Positions 3,094-26,581 of a stretch of DNA of 55,268 nucleotides are shown in pieces. Below the pieces are notes generated by a model. The model saw only the letters and a list, made by a program, of their open reading frames with translations, was not told where the DNA came from and made no database searches. The DNA lies in the IMG/VR virus record IMGVR_UViG_3300025137_000047, positions 1-55,268 of that record. One strand, given 5' to 3'. Position 1 is the first letter of the stretch; every line of letters starts with the position of its first letter. Position numbers and translations under genes: made by a program. This DNA comes from a virus. Taxonomy: Duplodnaviria > Caudoviricetes.

Positions 3094-3353
3094 GTAAAAT
3101 AAGAATCCTACAAGAGGATTGTGATATTAAATTAGCAGATGACAAATCACTCCCTAATACTTGCTTTGTTGTAGAATACTATAAGGATGATGCTAAGAAG
3201 TATGATCTAGTAATATCTACTAAGAAGGTAGATATCTTTGATCATTATTGGGACAAGTATAAGACTGGTTTTATTACCATCTATCAGTCTGCCGGTACTG
3301 CTAATCCTAAACTGTGGAATGCTCCTGGCAGTGAACCCAAGAAAAAGAAATGA
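3075..3353 (+). CDS. Hypothetical protein (start may be TTG 3090)
   Basis: ORF in the operon; DIFDHYWD...G.ANPKLW motif. Confidence 0.7.
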   Translation: MGRSQLSKIRILQEDCDIKLADDKSLPNTCFVVEYYKDDAKKYDLVISTKKVDIFDHYWDKYKTGFITIYQSAGTANPKLWNAPGSEPKKKK

Positions 3354-3532
3354 ATGACAAGAGTCTAAATGTCGATATCAATTTTGATGGTATCGAACAA
3401 GTCAAAAAGAAGTACAAGAAAATTAAAAAGTACATGAAGTCTAACCTATATCAGATTAAGGTTATAGACGGTACGGAGAAAGTAGTCTCCAACCTGATAA
3501 AGGAAAACGATAATGCAGAACTACTTGACTAA
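3350..3532 (+). CDS. Hypothetical Lys-rich protein
   Basis: ATGA overlap with the upstream ORF. Confidence 0.65.
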   Translation: MNDKSLNVDINFDGIEQVKKKYKKIKKYMKSNLYQIKVIDGTEKVVSNLIKENDNAELLD

Positions 3533-3553
3533 ATAATGTATGAGGTCTATAAT
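3525..3553 (+). promoter_or_regulatory. sigma70-type promoter with an overlapping late-promoter-like CTAAATA
   Basis: TTGACT(3525-3530)-17 nt-TATAAT(3548-3553); CTAAATA 3529-3535. Confidence 0.85.
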
Positions 3554-3561
3554 AGACCTGT

Positions 3562-3812
3562 CGTTCATCTCCTAATTTGGACTAAATTAGGACTCAATTA
3601 GGAGACGCAAGTAAGTCGCGGAACGGAGCCGTTCATCCTATGCTAGAAATACTATTCTATTCATCACTCACCTGTCAACAAGCTGATACAATCATGCTTA
3701 AGATGAAAGCAAATGAGAATATCTCAAATGCTTTTAAGGTAGAGTTGATTGAGGTCATGAAGGAATCAACACCTGAATGCTATCCATGGGACGCAAACGA
3801 CTAAAGGAACGG
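3562..3812 (+). ncRNA. Double glnA-type glutamine riboswitch-like RNA
   Basis: Two units CGTTCATC..P2..GACGCAA..GGAACG (3562-3625 and 3630-3811); lies just after a promoter and upstream of a DUF4278 gene. Confidence 0.8.
3640..3804 (+). CDS. 54-aa hypothetical protein nested in the riboswitch (MLEILFYSSLTCQQAD...ECYPWDAND)
   Basis: Translated by hand; GGAG at 3625-3628 upstream; too short for the ORF track. Confidence 0.7.
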   Translation: MLEILFYSSLTCQQADTIMLKMKANENISNAFKVELIEVMKESTPECYPWDAND

Positions 3813-3845
3813 ACCTAAAAATCCAACTACTTTAGGAGTAACAAC

Positions 3846-4013
3846 ATGAACACCCTTCAAATGGTAAAGCAGCAGATCAACAAAGTATCTGCACTTCACA
3901 ACGCACAAATTCTTCACACCTCATATCGTGGTGTTGAGTATAATACACGTTGTGTAGAAAACAAAGAGTCGCACGGTACATTCTGCTATCGTGGTCGTAC
4001 TTATACTAAGTGA
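3846..4013 (+). CDS. DUF4278-family small protein (related to GS inactivating factor IF17)
   Basis: 55 aa with two YRG motifs (SYRGVEY, CYRGRTY); strong AGGAG SD 3834-3838; downstream of glnA-type RNA. Confidence 0.85.
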   Translation: MNTLQMVKQQINKVSALHNAQILHTSYRGVEYNTRCVENKESHGTFCYRGRTYTK

Positions 4014-4031
4014 TTCATTAACTTACATTGC

Positions 4032-4060
4032 AGAGAGGATTAACTATCCTCTCTTTTTTT
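4032..4060 (+). terminator. Rho-independent terminator
   Basis: AGAGAGGAT-TAACT-ATCCTCTCT followed by a T run. Confidence 0.9.
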
Positions 4061-4191
4061 GTCTTTAAGTAACGAATTAACAATTGTTAGTAAACTAACA
4101 CAAACTAACCTAAATAATACAGAATTAAAAAATTTCCTATGATCTGAAAACTTTTTCTATATTAATGATGTAAACTCTTAAGGATTAAATC

Positions 4192-26443: not shown

Positions 26444-26500
26444 TCATAAAAAGGTCCAAAAAAAATTCTGGTAAAAAATTCATCCCAGACCTTTTTGTGA
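26444..26500 (+). repeat. Structured intergenic element, copy 1
   Basis: AAAAAGGTC..A-tract..TCTGG..TAAAAA..CCAGACCTTTTT; similar to 46820-46884. Confidence 0.7.
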
Positions 26501-26581
26501 GTGTGGCGGAATTGGTAGACGCACCAGACTTAAAATCTGTTGAGCATTATGCTCGTGGGGGTTCAAGTCCCCCCACTCGCA
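26497..26581 (+). tRNA. trnL: tRNA-Leu (UAA), intronless, CCA not encoded
   Basis: Acceptor GTGAGTG/CACTCGC, D arm GGCGGAATTGGTAGACGC, anticodon TAA 26531-26533, long variable arm GAGCA/TGCTC, T loop TTCAAGT. Confidence 0.96.

Follow-up and report, generated by a model that had tools for sequence, protein, structure and literature searches.

Two classes of glutamine riboswitch are the closest described systems to the element analysed here, which occupies positions 3562-3812 of a 55,268-nucleotide (nt) stretch of viral DNA (IMG/VR record IMGVR_UViG_3300025137_000047; Duplodnaviria, Caudoviricetes; the whole stretch is called the window below). The source of the window is a T4-like cyanomyophage. 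The glutamine-I class (glnA RNA motif, RF01739; crystal structure 5DDP, as cited in PMC6698751) has the order CGUUC-A-P2-CGxAAGUA-P3-GAAG-GAACG and is found in the 5′ leaders of genes for DUF4278 or IF17-like proteins or for nitrogen metabolism. The outer junction of our element has the same order and is followed by a DUF4278 ORF (open reading frame) at 3846-4013, which bears out a preliminary description of the window, made from its letters, that had recognized an RNA of glutamine-riboswitch type ahead of a DUF4278 gene. The glutamine-II class (Downstream-peptide motif, RF01704) shares with our element the CGUUCA-hairpin-CGCA...GGAACGG core and the C:G polarity of a long-range pair (PMC6698751), and it is tied to short DUF4278 proteins of marine picocyanobacteria (PMC6212724). 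The ON direction of control has been shown for the glutamine riboswitches of Synechocystis gifB and of Prochlorococcus, together with the association with DUF4278/IF17 (PMC6212724).

We conclude that positions 3562-3812 probably form a single composite glutamine riboswitch, in which the P3 helix of an outer glutamine-I junction encloses a second, circularly permuted junction, with a protein gene (ORF-B) in the loop of hairpin P2b. We assign the outer junction to the glutamine-I riboswitches and see in the complete element a new architectural variant. It differs from described glutamine-I RNAs in that P3 is long-range and encloses both the second junction and a gene, in that the host is a phage, and in that its long-range pair would have the polarity C...G (CGC...GAACGG) known from glutamine-II and not G...C. 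Compared with glutamine-II, on the other hand, it is nested rather than pseudoknotted, has no P2 around GGAACG, and possesses an E-loop and P3.

The tandem doublets reported by the Breaker laboratory (PMC2864571, PMC9481103) likewise place two core copies upstream of a single gene, in a stretch of about 100 nt, and the catalogued doublets are probably the ORF-less form of the present element. They are, however, described as independent, pseudo-cooperative neighbors, whereas here strands are exchanged, P3 is shared, and genes lie in the loops. In the glnA supplementary alignment of 2010, the units stand as separate rows of about 44-57 nt (PMC2864571); the 2022 review counts 157 doublets and four triplets, and the words "nested," "interleaved," and "phage" are absent from its available text (PMC9481103). 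A survey of 2017 gives no more than two glutamine aptamers for cyanophage genomes (PMC5473149). Within the literature covered on glutamine riboswitches, cyanophages, and DUF4278, available in part and with Ames and Breaker (2011) outside that coverage, no nested fold or aptamer-embedded gene is described.

Pairing of the four CGUUC and GAACG strands

The preliminary description had divided the element into two adjacent, self-contained aptamers, unit 1 (3562-3625) and unit 2 (3630-3811), each closed by its own CGUUC/GAACG helix (P1). On this model each unit would bind glutamine independently, in keeping with the usual account of tandem glutamine riboswitches. We compared this arrangement with others across a sample of relatives. 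A blastn search with positions 3350-4100 finds related DNA in 426 phage records, and one with positions 3540-3850 in 369; the matched records are exclusively Synechococcus, Prochlorococcus, "Cyanophage," or marine phages. Relatives of the nested ORF are encoded on 296 viral contigs (protein-guided scan), 80 of which were kept for element parsing. At least 120 further matches came from a search with a DNA pattern of the 3′ core of unit 1, and four divergent named phages were added, which represent four genera of Kyanoviridae. The full set of motifs, in the same order, was recovered by an anchored parse in 199 of 205 sources, corresponding to 167 distinct elements, a recurrence well beyond chance. 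The six unparsed sources comprise two without upstream sequence and four that are cut or have no core. We also made a MAFFT alignment (A1) of 113 distinct elements, all of them ORF-bearing.

Covariation shows a crosswise arrangement of the four CGUUC/GAACG strands. The first 5′ strand joins the last 3′ strand to make outer P1, the middle two form an inner hairpin (P1′) together, and each position that varies covaries in accord with the nested fold. The variable pair of outer P1 is C-G in 165 elements and U-A in two, and that of P1′ is C-G in 153 and G-C in 14 (13 of the 113 A1 rows have G-C); both are paired in 167 out of 167. This pair corresponds to C5:G36 of the published structure, which its authors call not highly conserved (PMC6698751). 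When the strands are instead paired side by side, 14 of 167 elements are mismatched in unit 1 (12 C.C and two U.C) and 14 of 167 in unit 2 (12 G.G and two G.A), without compensatory change in either unit. In two elements (L088 and L164) the strands read CGUUU, CAACG, CGUUG, and AAACG, and perfect pairing is obtained only crosswise. Two independent aptamers therefore make a very unlikely account of the element, and we return to the evidence in their favor below.

The alignment A1 gives the same picture. Under the nested structure 99.0% of its cells are paired, compared with 95.3% after shuffling and 31%-55% in slid controls, and 10 pairs are changed on both sides, a number reached in none of 500 shuffles. 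The inner pair of each side-by-side P1 is unpaired in 13 out of 113 rows, again without compensatory change; for the crosswise pairs the number is zero.

Two further helices belong to the nested fold. AGUCG and CGACU, taken as junction bases in the preliminary description, pair with each other as P3, which is formed at all five pairs in 167 out of 167 elements. Its changes are compensatory (pair 2: G-C 162, A-U three, G.U two; pair 5: G-C 162, A-U five), with G.U wobbles at pairs 1 and 3, and this covarying pairing is left unexplained if the two units are separate. The four pairs of P2b are likewise present in 167 out of 167, with up to five pair types each (helices include UCCC/GGGA, UCCU/AGGA, CCCC/GGGG, UCUA/UAGA, and GAUU/AAUC). 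Covariation of P1 and P2, which had been named as a check on the original model, is thus found for P2b, where changes are compensatory, and fails for the side-by-side P1 helices. The P2 proposed for unit 2 stands as a 4-bp helix, UCCY/RGGA, adjoining the AUG; its AUG/CAU extension is not general (at least three extra pairs in 64 of 157 ORF-bearing elements). The pseudoknot of glutamine-II, in which CGUUC pairs with GGAACG in the loop of a downstream P2, was not found in the element, and the covariation is that of a fully nested structure. The motifs listed in the preliminary description are all present in the window at the positions it gave (Table 1).

Table 1. Positions of the proposed riboswitch strands, embedded gene, and flanking signals in the window, in order along the strand
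Feature	Position	Strand	Remarks
Sigma-70-like promoter	3525..3553	+	TTGACT 3525-30, 17-nt spacer, TATAAT 3548-53; 11 of 12 consensus matches
Outer P1, 5′ strand, CGTTC (CGUUC)	3562..3566	+	Pairs with 3807-3811
P2a hairpin, outer junction	3568..3605	+	4-bp conserved base 3568-71/3602-05; changes on both sides at all four pairs
P2a as found in the window, 10 bp	3568-77 / 3596-3605	+	TCTCCTAATT / AATTAGGAGA
Outer junction, CGCAAGTA (RNA, CGCAAGUA)	3606..3613	+	Aligned to RF01739 consensus CGGAAGUA
P3, 5′ strand, AGUCG (AGTCG)	3614..3618	+	Pairs with 3798-3802
Inner junction, CG	3619-20	+	
Inner hairpin P1′	3621..3634	+	GAACG 3621-25 with CGUUC 3630-34; in minimum free energy (MFE) and centroid structures
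P1′ loop, 4 nt	3626-29	+	G3626 is candidate long-range-pair partner
GGAG, Shine-Dalgarno (SD)-like	3625-28	+	Overlaps P1′ loop
Inner junction, A3635	3635	+	
P2b, 5′ strand, UCCU	3636..3639	+	Pairs with GGGA 3788-91
P2b extension in the window, through AUG	3640-42 with 3785-87	+	TCCTATG 3636-42 / CATGGGA 3785-91
ORF-B, 54 amino acids (aa), phrog_504	3640..3804	+	phrog_504 match 6.6e-29; coding constraint
P2b, 3′ strand, GGGA (3788-91), and inner junction CGCAAA (3792-97)	3788..3797	+	
P3, 3′ strand, CGACU (CGACT)	3798..3802	+	
Anti-SD strand, CUAAAG (last two P3 bases and AAAG)	3801..3806	+	Holds ORF-B stop UAA 3802-04; alternative partner 3830-35
Outer junction, AAAG, E-loop 3′ half	3803-06	+	
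Outer P1, 3′ strand, GAACG (3807-11), and G3812	3807..3812	+	G3812 is candidate long-range partner of C3608, by analogy (PMC6698751)
Small spacer hairpin, GGA...UCC, from P1 end	3811..3824	+	Equivalents with other stems in homologues
Anti-SD partner, CUUUAG (3830-35)	3830..3838	+	Overlaps SD AGGAG (3834-38) of the DUF4278 gene
DUF4278/IF17-like gene, 55 aa, phrog_545	3846..4013	+	phrog_545 match 1.8e-34; PF14105 22.9 bits
Intrinsic terminator, 9-bp stem and T run	4032..4061 (also given as 4032-4054)	+	One found versus 0.3 expected in shuffles

Embedded genes and the downstream ribosome-binding site

A complete gene in a P2 loop, as the preliminary description had claimed, is what the homologues show: the 54-codon ORF-B is intact in the window and conserved among relatives, and the helix that closes its loop is kept by compensatory changes. 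Coding constraint had been another of the proposed checks, and it is evident in the interior codons, where the median ratio of nonsynonymous to synonymous substitution rates is 0.18 in the 54-codon set (49 sequences, 942 pairs) and 0.27 in the 53-codon set (53 sequences, 839 pairs). Judged by these ratios, ORF-B is a real gene under purifying selection. Its product has no Pfam match, and phrog_504 is a family of unknown function. AlphaFold2, run on 39 sequences, predicts a two-helix hairpin (helices 12-24 and 30-43; mean predicted local distance difference test score, 80), with low confidence in the tail dictated by the RNA, and two Cys are conserved in the product.

The boundaries of ORF-B coincide with those of the RNA structure. 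In 143 of the 157 ORF-bearing elements the AUG follows immediately on the 4-nt 5′ strand of P2b, and in the same 143 the stop codon (UAA or UGA) consists of the last P3 base and two junction bases; five of the 157 have the stop at the P2b 3′ strand. The proposal that the final codons and the stop are themselves aptamer core nucleotides is thereby upheld. Since the stop and the last four codons lie in the core, the C-terminal D-A-(N/H)-D of the protein (D-A-N-D in the window) is dictated by the RNA. GGAG is found in the P1′ loop of 141 of the 157 ORF-bearing elements and in none of the 10 ORF-less ones. It tracks the presence of the ORF, as would be expected of the SD sequence for which the preliminary description took it, and the distribution fits an SD-like role of GGAG in the translation of ORF-B.

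The window type, with a short P2a and an ORF in P2b, accounts for 133 of the distinct elements. The others have ORFs in both P2a and P2b (24 elements), short hairpins in both (eight), or an ORF in P2a and a short P2b (two); with these three further natural architectures, the peripheral loops appear as insertion-tolerant sites, as the nested fold predicts. The gene in the outer P2a loop, present in 26 of 167 elements, is ORF-A (phrog_6471, 65-68 codons), whose product has the pattern MLxLLLAxTLAHH...SC...EC. At its loci, which include L091, L096, L099, L104, L113, L115, and L144, ORF-A lies about 200 nt 5′ of the CGCAAGTA core. It starts directly after the P2a 5′ strand, its stop overlaps the P2a 3′ strand, and the P2a strands covary with that stop (UCUU/AAGA with UAA, UCUC/GAGA with UGA). 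When the ORF-A and ORF-B profiles are compared, 38 columns align, Cys to Cys (hhalign probability 75.5%, E 2.4e-5), and the two may therefore be old paralogues.

The variety of inserts, with zero, one, or two embedded ORFs in four architectures, could also be read to mean that the half-sites are mainly borders of cassettes or of recombination, at which small genes are exchanged between phages. On this reading the pairing across the ORF has no function, insertion has inactivated the riboswitch, and the compact ORF-less form alone works. The probable distant paralogy of the two ORF families would fit the duplication of such a "half-site, ORF, half-site" module. Decayed relics would not, however, be expected to retain what the ORF-bearing elements retain: outer P1, P3, P1′, and P2b are 100% paired in 113 of 113 ORF-bearing A1 rows, with compensatory changes over 150-190 nt, and both the core bases and the anti-SD covariation (see below) are kept. 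We consider this explanation highly improbable.

Two loci depart from these architectures in other ways. An extra stand-alone glutamine-I aptamer (35.1 bits, positions 95-146) precedes the nested pair at L156, making a triplet, and L170 has a 64-nt insertion in the P1′ loop.

The loops of group I and group II introns house ORFs for homing endonucleases or maturases. There, as here, a terminal loop can accommodate a long ORF because the closing helix restores the fold, and translation would compete with folding. The present element differs in being a small metabolite sensor and not a ribozyme, ORF-B is no mobility gene, and its start and stop overlap core or regulatory nucleotides.

Downstream of the junctions, the strand CU(A/G)AAG (3801-3806 in the window) is complementary to CUU(U/C)AG (3830-3835), which overlaps the AGGAG (3834-3838) of the DUF4278 gene; this anti-SD helix has no counterpart in the model of the preliminary description. 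Complete pairing over the six positions is seen in 146 of 154 distinct 3′ regions, and at the pair that varies A-U occurs in 46, G-C in 72, and G.U in 33, but A-C in none, three odd cases being mis-picked SD sites (Fisher's test, P = 1.5e-17, relatedness uncorrected). The MFE structure of the window has exactly this helix, enclosing the small hairpin 3811-3824. A structure constrained to the nested aptamer is 3.0 kcal/mol less favorable (−73.1 versus −76.1 kcal/mol for the MFE), a cost that ligand and tertiary contacts could plausibly pay. Because the anti-SD helix takes two bases of P3 and the E-loop strand, it excludes the outer aptamer, and the layout suggests a translational ON switch. The ORF-B stop (3802-3804) sits in the middle of the anti-SD strand, and both variants of the strand give a stop codon (UAA or UGA).

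Three observations on the spacer and on P2a stand apart from this helix. In the window the 5′ strand of P2a, CUCCUAA (3570-3576), is perfectly complementary to the ribosome-binding region UUAGGAG (3832-3838), which the 3′ strand of P2a mimics. When such an anti-SD sequence in P2a was sought in the homologues, it was found in the window's lineage only (L154 and L155 have a similar P2a); it may possibly add a lineage-specific layer of control. A pairing of the hairpin-loop UAAAA with UUUA was considered and rejected after it failed across spacer types. A longer spacer variant between GGAACGG and the DUF4278 start, with a conserved module of the form AACGGAUCC-short hairpin-GAGAAGGUUAA that the window does not have, is found at L074, L082, L083, L084, L088, L091, L160, L200, and other loci.

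From these features a mode of operation can be proposed. In the nested fold P3 would open into a second junction that repeats the core, the two junctions sharing P3 and having exchanged their 3′ strands. Without glutamine, CUAAAG (3801-3806) would pair with CUUUAG (3830-3835) and mask the ribosome-binding site of the DUF4278 gene; with glutamine, folding of P3, the E-loop, and P1 would sequester CUAAAG and turn the gene on. We infer glutamine binding, at one or both junctions, as well as the ON direction and the coupling to translation, by analogy with the described riboswitches. With glutamine and both junctions folded, the start codon of ORF-B (adjoining or within P2b) and its GGAG would be locked, and ORF-B would be translated only while the junctions are open, probably mainly on nascent RNA that still lacks the 3′ strands. 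To arrive at the ORF-B stop, a ribosome would have to melt P2b, P3, and the anti-SD helix, and it may transiently unmask the DUF4278 gene. Since the ribosome must melt these helices, translation of ORF-B and folding of the aptamer would be mutually exclusive; the preliminary description had already spoken of a mutually exclusive switch, which seems to us a reasonable inference.

Junction sequences, Rfam models, and alternative folds

Both junctions read CGUUC-A-P2-ACGCAA..-P3 strand ... P3 strand-..G-GAACG-G and are pseudo-symmetric about the common P3. The bases that match the published glutamine contacts (C1:G40, G2:C39 with G18, and C19:G41; PMC6698751) occur in both. By analogy with the same structure, from which the roles of the junction G and C are taken, the G and C of CGCAAGUA would serve in the ligand-site triple and in the long-range pair, respectively, and AAGUA would be the 5′ half of the E-loop. 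The putative E-loop has its halves in the outer junction alone, its 3′ strand being GAAG in 115 of 167 elements and AAAG in 52. The inner junction is CGCAAA in 119 elements, CGCACA in 45, CGAAAA in two, and CGCAUA in one.

The Rfam glutamine-I consensus is CGUUCA-P2-CGGAAGUA-P3-GAAGGAACG. Unit 1 supplies CGUUCA-P2-CGCAAGUA-AGUCG and unit 2 supplies CGACU-(G/A)AAG-GAACG: the first alone has no 3′ half of the E-loop and the second no 5′ half, and only when joined through P3 do they give the complete consensus, which speaks against two independent aptamers. The element has several features of glutamine-I, namely an enclosing P1, a P2 following CGUUC-A and followed by ACG(G/C)AAGUA, a P3 between AAGUA and GAAG, and a position in the leader of a DUF4278 gene, although P3 is long-range rather than a local hairpin.

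Searching with the Rfam models after deletion of the ORF had been suggested in the preliminary description, and natural versions of that deletion exist, since in 10 homologues a short hairpin replaces the ORF in P2b. RF01739 aligns six of the 10 as one aptamer of 87-97 nt, with 38.4-43.6 bits (threshold 35); in these six alignments P1 consists of the first 5′ and the last 3′ strand, and P3 is AGU...ACU with an insertion of 38-48 nt. A cyanophage annotation lists a 99-nt "glnA" match of 44.0 bits (PMC9964418, Table 4), a length that fits the compact double form.

Several results weigh against the composite reading. Concerning the Rfam models, no match was found at the element when the window was searched at gathering thresholds, where a tRNA was the sole match. 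A permissive scan of 3450-4100 matched unit 1 (3560-3629) to glutamine-I with 21.9 bits (threshold 35) and to glutamine-II with 16.4 bits (threshold 33), and it left unit 2 unmatched. The low RF01739 score of the window presumably reflects a P3 insert of about 180 nt, which exceeds the span of the model. At the other four of the 10 ORF-less loci, RF01739 aligns with unit 2 only, with 24.9-34.1 bits, under threshold; in two of these four the outer aptamer is beyond the model's reach because P2a holds an ORF. Two single units from ORF-less loci exceed the glutamine-II threshold (33) with 35.7 bits (L136) and 34.0 bits (L118). We attribute these two matches to the common core, yet they support separate units.

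Other points concern the junctions and the genes within them. The inner junction is without the AAGUA/GAA E-loop, and CGAAAA, in two of 167 elements, would abolish the long-range C-G pair. GGAG is missing in 16 of the 157 ORF-bearing elements. If termination on ORF-B also unmasks the downstream SD, the logic of control by glutamine would be blurred.

The sample also has properties that reduce what can be drawn from it. The DNA pattern and the regular expressions fix many core bases, and so only the free positions are informative and invariance is partly by construction. The P2a counts are biased, since the candidate that paired best was taken as the P2a 5′ strand; six A1 rows are shifted at the 5′ end and were counted as gaps; and the elements share ancestry, so alignment cells are not independent events.

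With regard to the fold itself, ViennaRNA alone predicts neither P3 nor outer P1 in the window, the predicted energies of the nested and side-by-side folds are close (−73.1 and −72.6 kcal/mol), and in 153 of the 167 elements, where the strands are identical, both topologies are possible. These last two points, with the weak Rfam matches of unit 1 and the scores of the ORF-less single units, are also the case for two independent aptamers, and published treatments agree with it: Weinberg et al. (2010) aligned such units singly (supplement glnA.sto), and Sherlock et al. (2022) list the 157 doublets as pseudo-cooperative tandems (PMC9481103).

Since either topology can be adopted by 153 of 167 elements, the side-by-side fold could still form, for example, as a cotranscriptional intermediate. 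One may then envisage that unit 1 folds by itself first on nascent RNA, leaving the ORF-B start free, and that the nested structure replaces it later, both being functional. The near-equal energies would allow this; synthesis of the first 5′ strand, P2a, and the first 3′ strand precedes that of the final 3′ strand by about 190 nt, and unit 1 alone resembles a P3-less aptamer. Against this, the inner pair of the side-by-side helices has been given up by selection in 14 of 167 elements, and the local hairpin 3621-25/3630-34 forms on synthesis and competes with the side-by-side P1. We regard a functional succession of the two folds as unlikely. The composite riboswitch with crosswise strands remains our preferred interpretation.

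Genomic setting and biological meaning

The element appears to head a small transcription unit. A promoter of sigma-70 type (Table 1) has a −10 box, TATAAT, that ends eight bases upstream of the first CGTTC, and the same TTGACT...TATAAT stands immediately 5′ of the element in many homologues; the promoter scan alone is weak, with three promoter-like sites in the region versus 3.3 expected in shuffles. Judged by these boxes, the transcript should start a few bases upstream of 3562. The ORF at 3846-4013 matches PF14105 slightly below the Pfam cutoff (25.3 bits). With a promoter on its 5′ side and a terminator 3′ of the DUF4278 gene, the element would head a self-contained unit of about 500 nt. 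In marine RNA libraries, contigs in four out of four runs span about 3609-4015, and single contigs connect ORF-B with the DUF4278 gene; positions 3450-3587 are not covered, to which we attach no significance. These are compatible with cotranscription of the two genes and are no proof of it, transcript ends and a DNA origin being beyond what contigs can tell. One metatranscriptome contig (run X16) fuses 3627 to 3787, omitting 159 bases; its most likely source is a relative without the ORF, and not a processed form of the window's RNA.

Elsewhere in the window, a tRNA gene with a long variable arm lies at 26497-26581 (Rfam tRNA, 55.8 bits). In the permissive Rfam scan, SIB_RNA matched at 3958-4090 on the minus strand, overlapping the terminator region (25.1 bits, threshold 56), and the L20 leader and snoZ39 matched near the terminator, far under threshold; we take all three as chance.

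Among the matches listed in contigs binned into metagenome-assembled genomes (MAGs), there are element copies, recorded as complete, at L239, L262, L278, L296, L299, and L322. The check used three motifs (upstream 5′ strand, second 5′ strand, and 3′ half), of which L262 and L296 have two. One of the contigs is labeled Verrucomicrobiales, and that of L239, 193,981 bp long, belongs to a Synechococcus MAG. Most of the pattern matches in such contigs (at least 120) are due to chance because the pattern has just 16 fixed bases, and in view of their phage-like context, and of sequences that resemble the phage elements, the copies are probably misbinned cyanophage contigs. They are no evidence either way on the existence of a cellular element.

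Taking these observations together with the proposed mode of operation, one can imagine that a glutamine sensor with two sites and swapped strands serves cyanomyophages as the framework of a small operon, with up to two Cys-pair genes in the sensor's loops and the DUF4278 gene behind it. Ribosome traffic would then be a second input that unfolds the sensor, and folding on glutamine would shut the embedded genes and open the downstream one. Binding would be cooperative, which in a two-site reading would follow from the sharing of P3 by the junctions. We put this forward tentatively, as a possibility to which we give slightly less than even credence.

Phage riboswitches have been regarded as rare, and related DNA is found here in 369-426 cyanophage records and in hundreds of viral contigs; standard models miss the element because genes sit inside it. 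Strand-swapped junctions with a shared helix would make "tandem" glutamine riboswitches physically coupled and not independent. Genes in aptamer loops would offer a natural system in which translation and ligand-dependent folding contend on one molecule. In viruses that are among the most abundant of the ocean, the element would tie an IF17-like protein and small phage proteins to host glutamine, which reports nitrogen status. If the two-site reading is true, the element would be the first riboswitch from nature in which one aptamer is inserted in another and aptamer loops contain protein genes, and it would show how phages sense the nitrogen status of their hosts.

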